UHGV virus genome: UHGV-0097031
DNA: 10,543 bases
Source of the DNA: a virus
Strand: one strand, 5' to 3'
The position numbers were made by a program, and so were the translations under genes. Shown here piece by piece: positions 1,240 through 9,042 of this stretch. The notes below the pieces were generated by a model. The model was not told the DNA's origin. It worked only from the letters and a program-made list of their open reading frames with translations, and searched no databases. Position 1 is the first letter of the stretch, and every line of letters begins with the position of its first letter.

Positions 1240-1632
1240 ATGGAGCATATCAGCAGCGCAGAAATTGCGGATATCATGATTAGGGCTGACTGCTATCTGA
1301 CAGTCACCGAAATCACCACTCTAGCTAAAGAAAAATATCCTCACCTTCATGTTTCACGAGTAAGTGTAACCAACATCATTCGGCATTTTGTGCGGTCAAG
1401 CCGAGCTATTTGTGAGCTTGATGATCGTGTTTACCCACGGAAATACTGGTTGCATGGCCTGAACGGATATCAGTTCAAGGTGCGCGGGCGCACGCCTGAA
1501 TACGGTAGCTTACTGGTTAAAAACTGTAGCAGGAAATCAGTCGAACAGGCGCGAAAAGAGCAACGAGAGCTGGTGGACATGGCGAATAAGCTGTGGAATG
1601 CCGCCGTTAAAAAGCGTGGTGTTGCTTTATGA
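1240..1632 (+). CDS. Hypothetical protein; positional candidate for a late-gene regulator (Lpa-like position upstream of pacA)
   Basis: 130-aa ORF; GGGGGA (1231-1236) just upstream of ATG 1240; its stop overlaps the downstream start (ATGA at 1629-1632). In P1 the gene before pacA is lpa (from memory); no sequence-level confirmation. Confidence 0.5.
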   Translation: MEHISSAEIADIMIRADCYLTVTEITTLAKEKYPHLHVSRVSVTNIIRHFVRSSRAICELDDRVYPRKYWLHGLNGYQFKVRGRTPEYGSLLVKNCSRKSVEQARKEQRELVDMANKLWNAAVKKRGVAL

Positions 1633-2993
1633 GTCTGGTTAATTGGGAGGAGCACCGCGCCCGCTTTATAGCGTTGCGTGAAGAAAAAGGGATCACTGTA
1701 AAGGAATACTGTGAGGAGCATGGCCTTAGCTTCAATACAGCCAGAAAGCATCTCAATATGAAAAAAAATGAGGTGCGGTCGCAGGTAAAGACAACAAAAA
1801 AAAGCACCAAATCACCTGAAAAAAAACGGGCGGGAAGAGCAACAAAAAAGCTGGAAGAGGGTGCAGAAAAAACAAAATTTACAGAAATTGACAATTCGCA
1901 GGGTGCAGGTTCTTTCCGAAGTATGCCAAGAAAGAAAACTTCGGATCATGAAAGTAATGCCAATAATAACAATGAGATAAAAGAATCTGTCAGGAGATCA
2001 TTGCGCGAAAAAATGGCGAAAATGATCCCCGAAGAAGATAAAAGCGCCCCAAAAATTGAGGGATCTTCAGCAATGATCCCTGGCGGTGCTGTGCAGCGTG
2101 CCACATTGCCCACTACGAATGTGGCTCGCGATATGATGAAGAACGGCGCAGAAGAACACCTGCGGTTAGCAATTCAAATGGCGCAAGAGCGCGCACTTCA
2201 GTATCAAAGCATTGTTGATCAGGAGGCCGAACGTCTACAGGCGGAAATAGACGCCTTGGGCGATAAAGAGCCAGAAGGAATGCACCCTGGGCAGCGCCTT
2301 CTCGGTCTAATCAGTGACGCGGCCTACTACATGAATGATTTTATCAGTAGGTTGGCAGCTATATATCAGTCCGAACAAAAGCTGCGACAGGGGGATGAAA
2401 AGCTTCGTCAGAGCGCTCGCCAGCAAGCATTCAAAGAGGCTGAGGCCAGAGAAAAACTCGAATTAGCACGCCTACAGGCCGAACAGCGTGGCAAAGAGAT
2501 TGAATATCGCATTGGCGCTGACGCACGCGCAGCCAGAGTTATCGCCGCCGCTATACGTATGCGTGAGCGCGAGGAACTGGATGATATCGGTGTTGCTGAA
2601 TACATCGAGCGCCAGGGGGTCAGCGTCCCGGCTATCCTCGCGGCGCGCGCGGCGAAAGCTATCACTCTTCTCGAACCACCTGTTTCTGACGTCAATGATG
2701 TTGATGATGAACAGCTGGACAAAGAGGCAAGGGAGTTTGCAACGCTTCAGGCTAACCATCCGCAATGGCTGGCAGAGCGCCGGGCGGATGTGGCAACCAT
2801 TGTTGAAGAATTGGGGTGCGGAGATTACGACCGCAATGGCGAGCGTAAAGCTGGAGAATTCGAGGCCAACGACGAAGAGCTGGATATTGACCCTTCGGCA
2901 ACGGCTGAAATTTACGGTGATTATGATGCATCTGATGCAGGGTATGACGCCGGAGATGATGATATCGCGATAGAACCGCCGGAGGATGATTAA
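1629..2993 (+). CDS. pacA: Terminase small subunit, PacA-like
   Basis: 454-aa ORF directly before and overlapping the large terminase gene (TAATG at 2991-2995). N-terminus (WEEHRARFIALREEKGITVKEYCEEHGLSFNTARKHL) looks like the HTH of small terminase subunits; Lys-rich linker, coiled-coil-like middle and strongly acidic C-terminal tail. Confidence 0.65.
   Translation: MSLVNWEEHRARFIALREEKGITVKEYCEEHGLSFNTARKHLNMKKNEVRSQVKTTKKSTKSPEKKRAGRATKKLEEGAEKTKFTEIDNSQGAGSFRSMPRKKTSDHESNANNNNEIKESVRRSLREKMAKMIPEEDKSAPKIEGSSAMIPGGAVQRATLPTTNVARDMMKNGAEEHLRLAIQMAQERALQYQSIVDQEAERLQAEIDALGDKEPEGMHPGQRLLGLISDAAYYMNDFISRLAAIYQSEQKLRQGDEKLRQSARQQAFKEAEAREKLELARLQAEQRGKEIEYRIGADARAARVIAAAIRMREREELDDIGVAEYIERQGVSVPAILAARAAKAITLLEPPVSDVNDVDDEQLDKEAREFATLQANHPQWLAERRADVATIVEELGCGDYDRNGERKAGEFEANDEELDIDPSATAEIYGDYDASDAGYDAGDDDIAIEPPEDD
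1943..2079. other. Candidate pac (packaging initiation) site: cluster of GATC-containing hexamers inside pacA
   Basis: Five GATC hexamers in 137 bp: GGATCA (1943-1948) and AGATCA (1995-2000) on the left, TGATCC (2023-2028), GGATCT (2061-2066) and TGATCC (2074-2079) on the right, arranged roughly as mirror images; AATGATCCC occurs twice (2021-2029, 2072-2080). P1 pac lies inside pacA and is built from Dam-methylatable TGATCA/G hexamers flanking the cut site (from memory). Confidence 0.3.
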
Positions 2994-4480
2994 TGGCTGG
3001 AGGGCGCAAGATTAAATGCGTCACCAGCGATCCACGCTGGCGCGATATGGTAATCAAATACCGCTACAACTTTACCCAGGCTGTTGTCGATATTTTTGGG
3101 ATGTTCCCCTCCCACCAGCAGCAGCAGATCATTCAGTCCGTGCAGGAAACGGGGAGTAGGACGACCGTCACGTCCGGACACGGAACGGGGAAGTCGTCCC
3201 TTACCGCGATGTTGCTGTTGATTTTCATGATCCTGTTCCCCGATGCCCGTGTCATCATTGTTGCTAACAAGATAGGCCAGGTAAAAACAGGCGTATTCAA
3301 ATACGTTAAACAGTATTGGGCGAATGTAGTTAAGCGTCATGGGTGGTTGCAGACCTATTTTGTCCTCTCTGACACCATGTTTTATGAGCGCTCCCGTAAG
3401 GGGATTTGGGAAGTTCTCTGCAAAGGTTATCGACTCGGCAACGAAGAAGCGCTGGCGGGTGAACACGCGGCACATTTGCTTCTAATTCTGGATGAAGCAT
3501 CTGGTATATCTGATAAGGCGATCGGCGTAATGACCGGTGCTCTTACTGAAGAAGATAACCGGATGTTGATGCTATCCCAGCCAACAAGGCCAAGTGGTTA
3601 TTTCTACGATTCGCACCATTCTCAAGCAAAAACCCCAGACAACCCGAAAGGGATCTGGACAGCAATTGTTCTTAACTCGGAAGAATCACCGTTCGTCACA
3701 CCACAATTCATCAAGCAGAAGCTTCTGGAATATGGCGGGCGCGATTCTATTGAGTACATGGTCAAGGTGCTTGGTCAGTTCCCACGAGAAATTAACGGCT
3801 ATTTGCTTGGTCGTGATGAATGCGATCGCGCTGCTCGCCGCAAGGTGTTGTTGGAGAAAAACTGGGGATGGGTGGCAACGGCTGACGTTGGTAATGGGCG
3901 AGATAAGTCGGTCCTCAACATCTGCAAGGTATCTGGTCACAGGGATAAGCGGCGCGTTGTTAACTTTAAGGTAATGGAGATGCCTGGCACTATGGACCCA
4001 TTGGCCTTTGCTGACTTCATATATAACGAATGTACGCCGGAAAAATACCCGAATATAACAATCGCGGTTGATGCTGATGGTTTTGGTTCTGATACGTGTG
4101 CGCAGTTGGTGCGTCGTGGTGCGAACCCGGTACGTATTCGGTGGGGAAAACCCATGTTTGCGAACAAAGACAGGGAGCGATTTGTTAATCAGCGTGCCTA
4201 CGCAAATATTATGGCGCGAGATGCCATAAAGTCAGGGCGTATGCGGATAGACAGTGACCCTAAAACGGCAGAGCAAGCGTCAAAAATCCCCTTTTTACTG
4301 AATGAAGAAGGGAAAATGGCGATGATGCGCAAAGAGCACATGCGGCAAAAGCTAAACATCAAATCGCCTGACCGATGGGATACCTACTGCTTCACTATGC
4401 TGGTGGACTATGTGCCTGCTAATGAAGATATTGGTGCCGAAATGGCAACTTTCCGAGATCAGGTTCTGGTGGATATATAA
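2993..4480 (+). CDS. pacB: Terminase large subunit, PacB-like (ATPase plus nuclease)
   Basis: 495-aa ORF; GGAGGA (2981-2986) 6 nt before ATG. P-loop TSGHGTGKSS, Walker B LLLILDEASGI, Asp-rich C-terminal half (e.g. VDADGFGSD) consistent with the terminase nuclease domain; size and position match P1 PacB (from memory). Confidence 0.85.
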   Translation: MAGGRKIKCVTSDPRWRDMVIKYRYNFTQAVVDIFGMFPSHQQQQIIQSVQETGSRTTVTSGHGTGKSSLTAMLLLIFMILFPDARVIIVANKIGQVKTGVFKYVKQYWANVVKRHGWLQTYFVLSDTMFYERSRKGIWEVLCKGYRLGNEEALAGEHAAHLLLILDEASGISDKAIGVMTGALTEEDNRMLMLSQPTRPSGYFYDSHHSQAKTPDNPKGIWTAIVLNSEESPFVTPQFIKQKLLEYGGRDSIEYMVKVLGQFPREINGYLLGRDECDRAARRKVLLEKNWGWVATADVGNGRDKSVLNICKVSGHRDKRRVVNFKVMEMPGTMDPLAFADFIYNECTPEKYPNITIAVDADGFGSDTCAQLVRRGANPVRIRWGKPMFANKDRERFVNQRAYANIMARDAIKSGRMRIDSDPKTAEQASKIPFLLNEEGKMAMMRKEHMRQKLNIKSPDRWDTYCFTMLVDYVPANEDIGAEMATFRDQVLVDI

Positions 4481-4507: not shown

Positions 4508-5545
4508 TTACCAGAGCTTCGCGGCGTACTGCGTTTGGGGGAATGTGTATCCGTAACGTTCTTCGATTGCTTTGCCGTATTTTTTACGAGCTTCATTCAG
4601 TTTTATGCCGGTCAGGTCGTCTCCAGAGGCCATCATTACGTCTAACAATTCCAGATCCATTTTATCCAGCCTTGCCATTGCTTCACGTGATGTACGTATC
4701 TTACGCTCAATGATATGGCGAATAGCCGGATCGGCATCCTCCAGCATCTTAGCGGATTTCTGCTTAAGGCTTTCATTGCGAATATCGATGTTCCTTAAGA
4801 TGTACGACTTCGCAACGTAGCTTGGCTGGTGTTTTTCCAGGTCACGAACACGATATAAGTTAAAATCGCCGAGAAGGCTGCAAGGTACCGATTCGACGCC
4901 AGAATAAATTGTAATGCTCCGGCGCTCACCAACATTATTGACAACGGGGATCGTTGTCTTCGGTAGTCTTGCGAAAACCAATGCGCCATGTGCGCCAACT
5001 CTAAAGCGAGAAAGGGCATTGCTGCCTTCGATGTTTGTTGTCAGCACAACATCTGTATATGCCTCTTTACGCGCCCGGTAGATCTCGCCTTCAGGCTCAG
5101 CTTCAAAGAAGCGCTGTTCTTCTTCAAGAGCACCTACGATTTGAGAAAAAACCCTATTTTTCAGGCTTTTCTTTATGATTTTGTCGTATTTTTTGAGCAA
5201 TTGTTCACGTGTAAATGTACGTGTTGTTGTAGCGCTTTGCACAACAACATGCGTGCTTTGATTGGTGTCCTCAATGATGAATGGGATCGGAGAATATACA
5301 GACTCAACAATGTTCGACGCTTTGCCGTCGGCATCGCGGCACATGTCAACGAAGGCTTTCCATTCAGCAAGACATTTTTCAGCTTCTTCTAATATGTTTT
5401 GGTCATGCGTTAATGCAACATGGCGGAATTCCTCGCCAGCATAACTGGTATCATGGAAAACAGAGTTTGCGACCACCAGCTCTTTCCACCGTTCAGCGGT
5501 TTGCAGGAACCGTTTGTACTCTTTCTCGATCGACTTCTTACTCAT
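4508..5545 (-). CDS. Hypothetical 345-aa protein in the immunity-region position (between pacB and lox-cre); candidate immunity repressor or accessory gene
   Basis: Longest ORF in this interval; AGGA 5 nt upstream of its ATG (minus strand); own AT-rich upstream region with paired operator-like inverted repeats; convergent with pacB and divergent from cre, as in the P1 immC region. I could not recognise any conserved domain by eye. Confidence 0.7.
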   Translation of the reverse strand: MSKKSIEKEYKRFLQTAERWKELVVANSVFHDTSYAGEEFRHVALTHDQNILEEAEKCLAEWKAFVDMCRDADGKASNIVESVYSPIPFIIEDTNQSTHVVVQSATTTRTFTREQLLKKYDKIIKKSLKNRVFSQIVGALEEEQRFFEAEPEGEIYRARKEAYTDVVLTTNIEGSNALSRFRVGAHGALVFARLPKTTIPVVNNVGERRSITIYSGVESVPCSLLGDFNLYRVRDLEKHQPSYVAKSYILRNIDIRNESLKQKSAKMLEDADPAIRHIIERKIRTSREAMARLDKMDLELLDVMMASGDDLTGIKLNEARKKYGKAIEERYGYTFPQTQYAAKLW

Positions 5546-5754: not shown

Positions 5755-5788
5755 ATAACTTTAAATAATTGGCATTATTTAAAGTTAG
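5755..5788. other. lox-like recombination site (13-bp inverted arms, 8-bp spacer)
   Basis: ATAACTTTAAATA - ATTGGCAT - TATTTAAAGTTAG; the arms are inverted repeats of each other at 12 of 13 positions, and the outer ATAACTT is identical to the outer 7 bp of the loxP arms (loxP: ATAACTTCGTATA). Lies 152 bp upstream of the Cre-family gene. Confidence 0.65.
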
Positions 5789-5939: not shown

Positions 5940-6968
5940 ATGAGTGAATTAATTATCTCTGGCAGCTCCGGTGGTTTTCTGCGCAACATTGGCAAAGAGT
6001 ACCAGGAGGCCGCAGAAAACTTTATGCGGTTCATGAATGACCAGGGGGCTTACGCGCCGAATACTTTGCGCGATCTCCGGTTAGTGTTTCACTCCTGGGC
6101 GAGATGGTGTCACGCTCGCCAGCTCGCCTGGTTCCCGATCTCACCAGAGATGGCCCGCGAGTATTTTCTTCAGCTGCATGATGCTGATCTGGCTTCGACC
6201 ACCATTGATAAGCACTACGCCATGCTTAACATGCTGCTTTCGCATTGTGGCCTTCCGCCACTTTCGGATGATAAAAGTGTTTCTCTGGCTATGCGGCGCA
6301 TCCGGCGTGAAGCGGCAACTGAAAAAGGCGAACGAACAGGCCAGGCTATACCGCTGCGGTGGGACGATCTGAAACTGCTCGACGTCCTGTTGTCCAGGTC
6401 AGAACGGCTGGTGGACCTGCGCAACCGGGCTTTTCTCTTTGTTGCATACAATACGCTGATGCGTATGTCGGAAATCTCGCGTATTCGTGTAGGAGATCTG
6501 GATCAAACAGGTGACACTGTCACGCTACATATTTCACACACGAAGACAATAACGACCGCCGCCGGGCTTGATAAGGTGCTTTCCCGTCGCACTACCGCTG
6601 TGCTGAATGACTGGCTGGATGTTTCCGGGCTTCGCGAACATCCTGACGCAGTGCTGTTCCCGCCGATACACCGTAGCAATAAGGCCAGGATCACGACAAC
6701 GCCCCTTACTGCACCTGCAATGGAGAAAATATTCAGCGACGCCTGGGTGTTGCTGAATAAAAGAGATGCTACGCCAAACAAAGGAAGATACCGGACGTGG
6801 ACCGGGCATAGTGCACGCGTCGGGGCCGCTATTGATATGGCTGAAAAGCAGGTGTCTATGGTGGAGATCATGCAGGAAGGAACCTGGAAGAAACCGGAAA
6901 CACTTATGCGGTATCTTCGCCGTGGCGGCGTGTCTGTGGGGGCTAATAGCCGCCTGATGGATTCGTAA
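5940..6968 (+). CDS. cre: Cre-family tyrosine site-specific recombinase
   Basis: 342-aa ORF that aligns by eye along its whole length with P1 Cre (343 aa): SWARWC / SWAAWC, WFP, LNML, SVSLAMRRIRRE / AVSLVMRRIRKE, AYNTLMRMSEISRIRV / AYNTLLRIAEIARIRV, HTKT / RTKT, WTGHSARVGAAIDMA / WSGHSARVGAARDMA, EIMQEGTW / EIMQAGGW, MRYLR / MNYIR. All catalytic positions (Arg, Lys, His-x-x-Arg, Trp, Tyr) are conserved. Confidence 0.9.
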   Translation: MSELIISGSSGGFLRNIGKEYQEAAENFMRFMNDQGAYAPNTLRDLRLVFHSWARWCHARQLAWFPISPEMAREYFLQLHDADLASTTIDKHYAMLNMLLSHCGLPPLSDDKSVSLAMRRIRREAATEKGERTGQAIPLRWDDLKLLDVLLSRSERLVDLRNRAFLFVAYNTLMRMSEISRIRVGDLDQTGDTVTLHISHTKTITTAAGLDKVLSRRTTAVLNDWLDVSGLREHPDAVLFPPIHRSNKARITTTPLTAPAMEKIFSDAWVLLNKRDATPNKGRYRTWTGHSARVGAAIDMAEKQVSMVEIMQEGTWKKPETLMRYLRRGGVSVGANSRLMDS

Positions 6969-7386: not shown

Positions 7387-7859
7387 AAACTTATTACCCA
7401 TCTCTGAATTGTTACCCGTCTTCCTATCCAGAATTATCCGGGAAGCTGTTAGCTCTATTAGCTAAAGCACCTACGGAATGGTTTAAGCCAGTCGTTATCA
7501 ATCCACACTTCCTGGGTTACGGATCTGTTCGCACTCGTAACGAACTCAAAAACCTACTGGCGCATGGATTCATTCGACACCGTGCCGGGAAAGGCTATCA
7601 GTTAGCGATTGCGCCAGAAGAGGCCGTGCGGCTATTCGCATATCGTGACAGCCAGACAAAAACTCGGGTAATAGCTCAAATACTTCATAACGGCAGCACC
7701 TATGCCCGCCAGTTTGGCGGCGACACGTCGCAGTTCTTGCGGGCGGTGCGATCGCTGGAGGAGCAAGGAGTTATTGAAAGTTCCTGTCTTCCTGTTCCTA
7801 CCGTTCCACATATCAAACGTCGGGTTTACACCTTCACGCAGAGAGCTAAAAAACAATGA
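7383..7859 (+). CDS. Hypothetical protein, possibly winged-helix DNA-binding (GTG start)
   Basis: 158-aa ORF; GTG start overlaps the upstream stop (GTGA, 7383-7386) with AAGGGGG 5 nt upstream. The segment LRAVRSLEEQGVIES...KRRVYTFTQRA resembles the recognition-helix/wing pattern of winged-helix regulators (weak, by eye). Confidence 0.5.
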   Translation: MKTYYPSLNCYPSSYPELSGKLLALLAKAPTEWFKPVVINPHFLGYGSVRTRNELKNLLAHGFIRHRAGKGYQLAIAPEEAVRLFAYRDSQTKTRVIAQILHNGSTYARQFGGDTSQFLRAVRSLEEQGVIESSCLPVPTVPHIKRRVYTFTQRAKKQ

Positions 7860-8350
7860 TTTACGTAAAAGTGAAACGCCTACATCCGGCAGCAAAACTT
7901 CCAGCTTATGCCACCTCCGGATCGGCGGCGATGGATTTTGAGGCTGTTGAAATAAAACCATGCGTCGATAGCAATGGTGCAATTTCCTCAAGCTGGTGGG
8001 TGTATACCGGACTGGCTATGGAGATCCCGCCCGGCTGGTGTCTGAAACTCTATCCGCGATCAGGATTGGGCTGCAAAAAACATACTCGCCTGGCTAACTG
8101 CGTAGGAATTATCGACTCCGATTATCGCGGCGAAATCATGGCAAAACTGATTACTGATCCCGGCGGGGAAGGCGTTTGTCTCAAGCCTGGAATGGCTGTC
8201 ATGCAAGGAATTTTTGAGCGTGTTGAACAAGTCTCACTAGTCGAGGTTGAGGAACTCAACGAAACGGAGCGTGGTGCTGGTGGCTTTGGTAGCACATCGG
8301 AAGGCCACTTTGAAATTAAGCGTTCACCGCTTCAGTACGAAAAGTTATAA
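7856..8350 (+). CDS. dut: dUTP diphosphatase (trimeric dUTPase family)
   Basis: 164-aa ORF with the conserved dUTPase motifs in order: YATSGSAAMDF (motif I, variant of AGxDL), PRSGLG (II), GIIDSDYRGEI (III), AVMQGIF (IV), ERGAGGFGSTS (V). Alignable by eye with E. coli Dut; ~16-aa C-terminal extension. Start overlaps upstream stop (ATGA, 7856-7859). Confidence 0.9.
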   Translation: MIYVKVKRLHPAAKLPAYATSGSAAMDFEAVEIKPCVDSNGAISSSWWVYTGLAMEIPPGWCLKLYPRSGLGCKKHTRLANCVGIIDSDYRGEIMAKLITDPGGEGVCLKPGMAVMQGIFERVEQVSLVEVEELNETERGAGGFGSTSEGHFEIKRSPLQYEKL

Positions 8351-8364
8351 GCAGAGAAAAGACT

Positions 8365-9042
8365 ATGAATAACAAGGCAACGAAAGAGCTTTTTAAGCTC
8401 CTTCCCAAATACAAAGCTCACAAAAACGTTAGTGCATCGAAAATCAAAAATGTTGTTATTTTCGGAGTAACTGATACCCCACTTTGGGGCAGCATCGAAC
8501 TCGTTGAACCTAAAGGGGCAACAGTTTGTGTTGACGCAATGTTTTTACAAAAACACCGACCAAAAACTGGCGGGTATCTGATCGTTTATGAAAACGGTTA
8601 TCTGTTCTATGCCCCGGAGAAACCATTTGAGGAACGCTATGGCCTGGTTAACGACGCCTCCAAAAATGGAACCACGGTCATCATTACGGATGACAACGGC
8701 GCGATGATTAATCTTACCGGGAGCGTAACTATTTCTGCTGGTGGCATCACCACCCAGCAAGAAGAAATCGACCTTGAAGCAGCCGACTTTTCTGACGCGC
8801 TGATGTGGCTGAAGGATGGCAAGAAAGTTGCTCGACGCGGGTGGAACGGCGAAAACCAATTCTGCTGGCTGGTTCCTGAAGGACAGTACCCGGCACGAAT
8901 GGAAGCCATTAAGGGATATTTTCCCGGCGACCTCGTTCCGTATGGTGCTTATTTCGCCTTAAAAAATGCACAAGGTGTAGTTGTTCCGTGGGTGCCTTCA
9001 GTTGGCGACCTGCTGGCCTGTGACTGGTTTGTTGTGGAGTGA
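8365..9042 (+). CDS. Two-part protein: unknown N-terminal region (~140 aa) fused to a C-terminal DUF2829 (Tad2-family) domain
   Basis: 225-aa ORF. C-terminal ~85 aa (DFSDALMWLKDGKKVARRGWNGENQFCWLVPEG...PYGAYFALKNAQGVVVPWVPSVGDLLACDWFVVE) matches the DUF2829 pattern I recall (F-x-x-A-L-x-x-L-K-x-G-K-K-V-x-R-x-G-W-N-G ... P-W-x-x-S-x-x-D-L-L-A-x-D-W). N-terminal part unrecognised. Confidence 0.7.
   Translation: MNNKATKELFKLLPKYKAHKNVSASKIKNVVIFGVTDTPLWGSIELVEPKGATVCVDAMFLQKHRPKTGGYLIVYENGYLFYAPEKPFEERYGLVNDASKNGTTVIITDDNGAMINLTGSVTISAGGITTQQEEIDLEAADFSDALMWLKDGKKVARRGWNGENQFCWLVPEGQYPARMEAIKGYFPGDLVPYGAYFALKNAQGVVVPWVPSVGDLLACDWFVVE

Follow-up and report, generated by a model that had tools for sequence, protein, structure and literature searches.

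The stretch of DNA examined here, hereafter the window, comprises 10,543 nucleotides of the virus genome UHGV-0097031 and belongs to a D6-like, P1-related phage-plasmid, its DNA being 97% identical to that of Escherichia phage D6 (AY753669, MF356679). Its pacA gene, which codes for the homologue of the P1 terminase small subunit PacA, contains five closely spaced GATC motifs, and we consider it very probable that the segment holding them (1942-2080) is the core of the packaging (pac) site of D6-like phage-plasmids, a diverged counterpart of P1 pac. This reading is favoured because comparative conservation is decisive, the density of the motifs being weak evidence. An earlier note, drawn from the letters of the window, had wavered between a diverged pac site and a coincidence of coding sequence; the invariance of the motifs within the D6 clade and the presence of GATC clusters throughout the family, P1 included, support the former.

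The GATC motifs of the cluster begin at 1944, 1996, 2024, 2062 and 2075. The five hexamers that the earlier note had placed in the 137 base pairs (bp) from 1943 to 2079 were all found there (GGATCA at 1943-1948, AGATCA at 1995-2000, TGATCC at 2023-2028, GGATCT at 2061-2066 and TGATCC at 2074-2079), as were the inner spacing of ~22 bp, which separates the second and third hexamers, and the duplicated 9-mer, which is AATGATCCC at 2021-2029 and 2072-2080. A scan of both strands of the 91-kb D6 genome returned only two copies of this 9-mer, both in the cluster. GATC had also been described as rare elsewhere, at about once per several hundred bp, and the 40 occurrences outside the cluster (~1 per 260 bp) agree with this; the total for the window is 45, as against a shuffle expectation of 41.9. 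With its 5 GATC in 135 bp, the cluster is the tightest group of five in the window, and it is again the tightest in the D6 genome (131 bp vs 327 bp for the next outside pacA). The proposal that the hexamers are mirrored stood in part. TGATCC is indeed the reverse complement of GGATCA, but GGATCT is not that of AGATCA, and an arrangement of a left pair facing a right triple was not borne out: the asymmetric motifs follow the order - - + (0/-) + in the window and - - + - + across the clade. The motifs occupy three reading phases (GAT-C, xGA-TCx and xxG-ATC), where they encode D-H, R/G-S and M-I.

The evidence that carries the pac reading comes from the comparison of pacA genes collected from PLSDB plasmids, IMG/VR and metagenomes, among which were 33 unique D6-clade genes falling into four deep subclades. 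Over gene nucleotides 300-460 the subclades are only 59-64% identical to the window, and 31 of the 33 genes share the positions of all five GATCs. Across seven deep representatives 43% of columns are invariant in gene nucleotides 130-480. Between gene nucleotides 147 and 482 there are ten invariant blocks of at least 4 nucleotides (AATTTACA, TGACAA, ATGCC, CGGATCA, AACA, GATCATT, AAATGATCCC, GATC, AATGATCCC and TTGCC), and five of these are the GATC elements. The chance that five random 4-mers from this part of the gene, which codes for a linker, would all be invariant was put by permutation at p = 1.5e-5. Nucleotide-invariant codons make up 6 of the 10 that overlap GATC, vs 7 of the 103 other linker codons (Fisher p = 1e-4). 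Where the overlapping codons do vary (CAT/CAC, AGA/GGA, TCT/TCA), the variants all preserve GATC, the exceptions being two singleton losses, and the R<->G replacements that result are non-conservative for the protein and neutral for the DNA word. A further 11 metagenome copies had been chosen via elements 3-5 and hence offer an independent test of elements 1 and 2 only; both were present in 11 of 11.

The GATC motifs are under purifying selection at the level of DNA. The earlier note had proposed to weigh conservation of the hexamers in homologous pacA genes against synonymous drift, and the outcome is in favour of the site, since the hexamers are kept across subclades that are ~60-64% identical and through codon changes that preserve GATC. 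It is the DNA word rather than the peptide that is conserved in the cluster, because GATC sits in three phases and one 8-mer, ATGATCCC, is read in different frames, encoding M-I-P in D6 and N-D-P in another lineage of the family, g34.

Element 1, CGGATCA (reverse complement TGATCCG) at 1942-1948 on the minus strand, has its GATC at 1944-1947 in phase 0 (Asp-His); the block is invariant in seven deep D6-clade lineages, its codons are GAT CAT or GAT CAC in all 33 unique genes, and it is absent from the Enterobacter lineage L044/L008. Element 2, GGAGATCATT at 1993-2002 (minus strand; GATC 1996-1999, phase 1, Arg/Gly-Ser), is the inverted partner of element 3 and pairs with 2021-2030 as inverted repeat I2. 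Its GATCATT is invariant, its codons are AGA TCA or GGA TCA in 32 of 33 genes, with a loss in L019, and in subclades b-d it reads GGGATCATTT, which matches the reverse complement of element 3 exactly. That element, AAATGATCCC at 2020-2029 (plus strand; GATC 2024-2027, phase 2, Met-Ile-Pro), forms an invariant block of 10 nucleotides with ATG ATC in 32 of 33 genes, is lost in L042, and is present in the Enterobacter lineage. Element 4, GGATCT at 2061-2066 (no strand assigned; GATC 2062-2065, phase 1, Gly/Arg-Ser), appears in other subclades as GGGATCATT or AGATCAT in minus orientation; its GATC is invariant and both its flanks are variable, the codons being GGA TCT, GGA TCA or AGA TCA in 33 of 33 genes. 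Element 5, AATGATCCC at 2072-2080 (plus strand; GATC 2075-2078, phase 2, Met-Ile-Pro), repeats the core of element 3 exactly (direct repeat D6) and is an invariant block of 9 nucleotides, with ATG ATC in all 33 genes, and is likewise present in the Enterobacter lineage. Elements 2/3 and 4/5 make up two inverted pairs. In subclade b, elements 4 and 5 together form the near-palindrome GGGATCATTGCAAATGATCCC; in the subclade of the window, the copies on the minus strand have undergone partial erosion, to GGAGATCATT and GGGATCTT.

The cluster lies, as the earlier note had it, inside pacA, an open reading frame at 1629-2993 and the orthologue of D6 pacA, in a part of the gene where the protein is little constrained. 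PacA of the window shares ~21-25% identity with that of P1 (21% across the full length, E = 2e-9). In a single-sequence AlphaFold2 model, residues 1-58 form a confident N-terminal helical domain, similar to a helix-turn-helix (HTH) and overlapping a weak HTH_23 match; confidence is low at residues 60-110 and 133-170, moderate for a helix at 110-132, and long helices run from residue 162 on. Conservation in the family alignment is limited to residues 1-48 and ~160 onwards. The cluster corresponds to codons 106-150, within the linker-coding segment, and the P1 pac elements correspond to PacA codons ~65-118 in the equivalent unconserved linker. The mapped pac of P1, with its IHF site and cleavage points, thus occupies the same variable segment, flanked by the parts that code for the HTH domain and the helical core. 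A linker so poorly constrained leaves room for a signal at the DNA level. A search of solved structures gave nothing useful.

The same placement recurs in relatives well beyond the D6 clade. PacA homologues in IMG/VR span 100% to ~22% identity, and a scan of genome contigs returned P1-like loci only. In 12 of 12 lineages, P1 among them, gene nucleotides 140-480 are 4-8-fold richer in GATC than the remainder of the locus. In gene nucleotides, with an oblique stroke between the upstream and downstream groups, GATC occurs at 195, 202, 214, 229 / 325, 337, 348 (376) in P1, at 199-255 / 338-375 in lineage g36, at 184-268 / 369 in g34 and at 157, 169, 181 / 380-471 in the Enterobacter type (L008, L044); in the D6 clade it occurs at 316, 368, 396, 434 and 447 only. 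Codon choice follows the word. In the linker, 46 of the 50 Asp codons that precede a codon starting with C are GAT, vs 22 of 51 such codons in the remainder of pacA (p = 1.3e-7), and 23 of the 28 Ile codons that follow a codon ending with G are ATC, vs 20 of 49 elsewhere (p = 7e-4). These family-wide p-values are optimistic, the lineages being related, and the direction is uniform. Two dialects can be told apart: palindromic TGATCA in P1, g32, g36 and Pantoea, and asymmetric GGGATCA/TGATCCC in D6, the Enterobacter type and g34. For the D6 clade the consensus, which occurs in both orientations, is TGATCC, with AATGATCCC as its extended form.

Of all pac-like arrays in the family, that of g32 (L050-L062) is the most regular: six TGATCA at an exact 12-bp period (pacA gene nucleotides 154-214) encode (x-x-D-H/Q) repeats and two more follow ~150 bp downstream, at 363 and 379. 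Our search of the literature returned no experimental characterisation of the pac-like clusters in P1-family lineages other than P1.

Among these lineages, the Enterobacter p60214CZ_1/L044 type, IMG/VR g34, g32 and g36, and Pantoea carry their clusters at the same position in the gene as D6. They differ from D6 in that 3-6 GATC, frequently spaced at a 12-bp period, form a group of their own upstream, 80-200 bp from the downstream group. The Enterobacter type is the nearest outgroup (55-57% protein identity to the D6 clade), and its counterparts of elements 2, 3 and 5 are positionally homologous with those of D6. Because, relative to this outgroup, the D6 clade is missing the upstream arm of three GATCs and has gained elements 1 and 4, the D6 site appears to be derived and compacted, and would seem to evolve by turnover of single elements.

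P1 provides the experimental precedent. P1 pac has seven TGATCA/G repeats, Dam gating and an IHF site (PMC10028697), and in NC_005856 its GATC clusters stand on either side of the annotated IHF site and of the mapped cleavage points. Recoding of P1 pac is reported to lower the phage titre 9-fold (PMC10028697). Like the D6 site, P1 pac (161-162 bp) is a GATC-repeat site within pacA, in the linker-coding 5' third. The two systems also have in common adjacent pacA and pacB genes, a phage adenine methylase, a recombinase target (lox/rox) ~4 kb downstream, GATCs preserved via synonymous codon choice, and the pentamer TGATC. Background on P1 pac comes from Sternberg & Coulby (1987/1990) and from Skorupski et al. 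(1992/1994). Signals embedded in the gene of their own recogniser are found in other headful-packaging phages, namely in P22 gene 3, SPP1 (pacL/pacC/pacR) and Sf6, all of which place the packaging signal within the small-terminase coding sequence. The D6 site resembles these in its location; unlike it, they have no GATC repeats and belong with unrelated terminase families, and we know of no methylation gating at them.

Elements 1 and 2 are 48 bp apart, and the spacer contains a conserved A-rich core, ATAACAATGAGATA at 1966-1979 on the plus strand, in which the columns A.AACA...AG.TA are invariant (alignment A2). It is a weak IHF-like match: TAACAATGAGATA (1967-1979) is identical to the annotated P1 IHF site, AAACAAAGAGTTA, at 10 of 13 positions, and a pattern built post hoc from the P1 and D6 IHF-like sites is unique in the window, which makes the resemblance no more than a lead. 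The strict IHF consensus, with one mismatch allowed at most, found no match inside the cluster. A role of the core as a bend or cleavage region is possible. A perfect IHF consensus, TATCAAAGCATTG at 2202-2214, does occur ~125 bp downstream of element 5, next to a palindromic TGATCA (2216-2221), and both are unconserved in subclades D6b-d.

Several further points, besides the relatedness of the lineages, weigh against our reading. Firstly, the GenBank records of D6 carry a rox feature and no pac feature. Secondly, the density of GATC is unremarkable across the 91 kb of the D6 genome, where an equally tight cluster would be expected somewhere with p ~0.3; the scan statistic for the window gives p = 0.07 under uniform placement and 0.04 under a first-order Markov model. 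Because these values are marginal, density by itself proves nothing, and it is the conservation that is compelling. Thirdly, the spacer core has two mismatches to WATCAANNNNTTR, and such matches arise ~1 per 108 bp in the window, which is background. Fourthly, the IMG/VR natural variants L019 and L042 each lack one GATC through a T-to-C change (GATC to GACC at pacA gene nucleotides 368 and 396, respectively), losses that could be tolerated polymorphism or the mark of defective prophages. Lastly, the architecture departs from that of P1, in which 4 + 3 palindromic TGATCA/G hexamers surround a ~92-bp centre with the IHF site and the cut. D6 has five oriented elements of the TGATCC type in 137 bp, arranged in two inverted pairs, rather than seven; its largest spacer is 48 bp; none of its hexamers is TGATCA/G, a difference that the earlier note had rightly remarked on; and it has no upstream arm (gene nucleotides ~150-270) of the kind found in every other lineage.

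Because of this departure, the D6 cluster may be only part of the functional site. That it constitutes one arm of a D6 pac which extends upstream, with a cut outside 1943-2079, is the best of the alternatives, and we regard it as unlikely without being negligible. Every other PacA lineage has its GATCs in two groups 80-200 bp apart, and the closest outgroup (Enterobacter L044/L008) has a P1-like left arm at gene nucleotides 157-181 that D6 is without. Invariant blocks without GATC exist upstream, and elements that lack GATC are among the candidates for further parts of the site. A further candidate is GGGATCAC at 1689-1696 on the minus strand, a heptamer of the D6 dialect that lies 250 bp upstream of the cluster, where the gene codes for the HTH; its block of 8 nucleotides is invariant in the D6 clade, two synonymous positions included, and absent from other lineages. 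It is possibly an outlying sixth element, although the evidence is weak, since the protein too is conserved there. Another is AATTTACA-N5-TGACAA (1876-1894, plus strand), again invariant in the D6 clade at synonymous positions as well and recognisable in the Enterobacter lineage as CTTACAAAAACTGACAAA, which could be a further recognition element of pac or a peptide motif, F-T-x-x-D. Against an extended site, these upstream blocks lie in or beside positions conserved in the protein, the GATC elements are the sole repeated motif found, and the gains of elements 1 and 4 specific to D6 fit a site that was rebuilt to be self-contained.

A second alternative is that the cluster is a regulatory element responsive to Dam/SeqA, serving for example in the timing of pacA/pacB or in the sequestration of new DNA, and has nothing to do with packaging. 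Clustered GATCs are typical of such sites, among them oriC, the repeats of P1 oriR, the IS10 and Tn5 promoters and pap, at which the methylation state is read by a protein, and the selection on DNA that we observe does not specify its purpose. However, those clusters are origins or promoters, while the D6 cluster has conserved flanks and no promoter-like site in or near it; the homologous GATC clusters of P1 are an experimentally defined pac; and the extended, oriented flanks (AATGATCCC) suggest a sequence-specific binder, when SeqA and Dam need GATC only. With P1 as a precedent and the flanks conserved, a Dam/SeqA function is less economical than a pac site, and we think it improbable.

Still less credible is an origin of the conservation in the protein or the RNA, that is, in peptide motifs (D-H, G-S, M-I-P) or in mRNA hairpins (1993-2002/2021-2030 and 2061-2080). 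Eight of the ten GATC-overlapping codons are invariant in amino acid, inverted repeats are present, and the RNA folds better than shuffled sequences (z = -2.7). On the other side, the tetramer is kept in three phases and across R<->G replacements, ATGATCCC falls in different frames in different lineages, and the synonymous bias towards GATC is family-wide. RNAalifold on 11 diverse sequences found no covariation (term +0.12), with only the invariant motifs pairing together, and the stems are shortened by flank changes in the window's own subclade; an Rfam search gave no match. Finally, the idea that the cluster is a functionless chance product of Lys/Asp/Ile-rich coding, for which the marginal scan statistics might be cited, has next to nothing left to it in the face of the permutation result for conservation, the recurrence of the pattern at the same place across the family, the rank of the cluster as the genome's first in the very gene segment that holds P1 pac, and a divergence of 36-40% between the elements that argues against recent recombination of the segment among subclades.

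If the segment is pac, its working can be sketched on the model of P1, from which we infer binding by PacA, gating by methylation, the position of the cut and the direction of packaging. Late in lytic growth, the N-terminal HTH of PacA would bind the five GATC elements, with the consensus (A)ATGATCC(C). Full N6-adenine methylation of the GATCs, by host Dam or by the phage's Dmt-like enzyme, would gate the passage from binding to cutting. PacB, the presumed cutting partner of PacA, would then cut nearby, likeliest in or beside the A-rich spacer of 48 bp that separates element 1 from element 2, or between elements 2 and 3. Headful packaging would run towards pacB-c1-rox; the first headful would thus have rox in its terminal redundancy, so that Dre could circularise the DNA. 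The D6 genome does encode a dmt-like adenine methylase (D6_63), and hosts such as E. coli and Salmonella are Dam+. The distance from the cluster to rox is 3.75 kb, and that from pac to lox in the P1 annotation is 3.98 kb.

A more specific evolutionary proposal, which we put forward tentatively and would not bet on, is that the D6 clade replaced an ancestral bipartite P1-style pac with a compact site, composed of oriented AATGATCCC in inverted pairs and recognised by a PacA of changed specificity. Were this so, D6, the Enterobacter lineage and g34, which use TGATCC, would constitute a packaging-specificity group orthogonal to P1 with its TGATCA; the split 4 + 3 architecture would be dispensable for Dam-gated cleavage of pac; and single GATC elements would be gained and lost as the site evolves, which would dictate in turn the sequence of the PacA linker peptide.

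Phage-plasmids of the D6 type are common in E. coli, Salmonella and Shigella; this pacA is present in 121 plasmid records of PLSDB, and the packaging signal is unannotated in the records examined. Phagemids with P1 pac are in use for the delivery of CRISPR systems (PMC10028697). A defined D6 pac would permit D6-based phagemid or transduction vectors orthogonal to these. It would likewise allow pseudo-pac sites, and hence hot spots of transduction, to be predicted, and would offer a natural second specificity with which to study how PacA reads methylated DNA. The family comparison is, moreover, a clean case of a cis-acting DNA signal shaping an overlapping coding sequence. Our full-text search of the literature returned no description of a D6 pac, although either of the two works likeliest to treat one may already note these GATCs: Sauer & McDermott 2004 (NAR 32:6086), whose title reportedly names the 'pac-c1 regions' of P1-related phages, and Gilcrease & Casjens 2018 (Virology 515:203).

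With respect to physical ends, two contigs from one isolate, IMGVR_UViG_2537562191_000026 (the end of L047) and _000021 (the start of L036), abut with an overlap of 10 nucleotides, ATGAAAATAA. The junction falls at 1949-1958 of the window, directly to the right of element 1. Ends at this place were seen in 1 of 29 D6-clade IMG/VR contigs and in 0 of 11 metagenome contigs. The junction could stem from a physical end of the DNA or from heterogeneity at pac, and we treat it as a lead, not as evidence.

The genes around the cluster are arranged as in P1. The window reads lpa-pacA-pacB-c1-rox-dre-dut, the P1 counterpart being lpa-pacA-pacB-c1-lox-cre, so that pacA, pacB and the recombinase site are syntenic. 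The first gene, lpa (1240-1632, plus strand), codes for the late promoter activator (Pfam BPP1_LPA, E = 1e-56) and is so annotated in D6. pacA itself, on the plus strand, matches PHROG 1711 'terminase' (E = 2e-183) and has the D6 annotation pacA. Next to it, pacB (2993-4480, plus strand) codes for the terminase large subunit, a nuclease/ATPase (PHROG 2 'terminase large subunit', E = 6e-40; D6 annotation pacB), and its product has a weak Terminase_6N match. Both terminase genes are intact. In the gene-order listing of the window, c1 occupies 4508-5545 on the minus strand, dre 5940-6968 and dut 7856-8350. The Dre recombinase site rox, at 5756-5787 on the plus strand, is an exact match to the rox pattern and is annotated in AY753669.

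The end of lpa overlaps the start of pacA by ATGA at 1629-1632, which places pacA in late expression and leaves no intergenic late promoter. P1 has a gap of 85 bp between the two genes, with the late promoter LPpac, and pacA transcription in D6-like elements may be organised differently from that in P1. An internal promoter or terminator at the cluster was considered and rejected, there being no promoter-like site and only weak terminator-like matches on the minus strand.

Other features of the window were noted in passing. Within pacA, a stretch of 32 nucleotides at 1743-1774, AGAAAGCATCTCAATATGAAAAAAAATGAGGT, is invariant across the deep D6 subclades at every synonymous position and holds a run of A8; possible causes are a signal at the DNA or RNA level, a slippery run and a recombination tract. 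Just downstream of the cluster, an inverted repeat of 12 nucleotides, GCGTGCCACATT/AATGTGGCTCGC (2096-2107/2118-2129), is 92% complementary with a loop of 10 nucleotides. Two open reading frames, at 164-739 and 8365-9042, contain a Tad2-like domain (PF11195, Thoeris anti-defence 2-like / DUF2829) with E = 1e-9 and 2e-22, respectively, and may serve in anti-defence, as genes on either side of the immC region.

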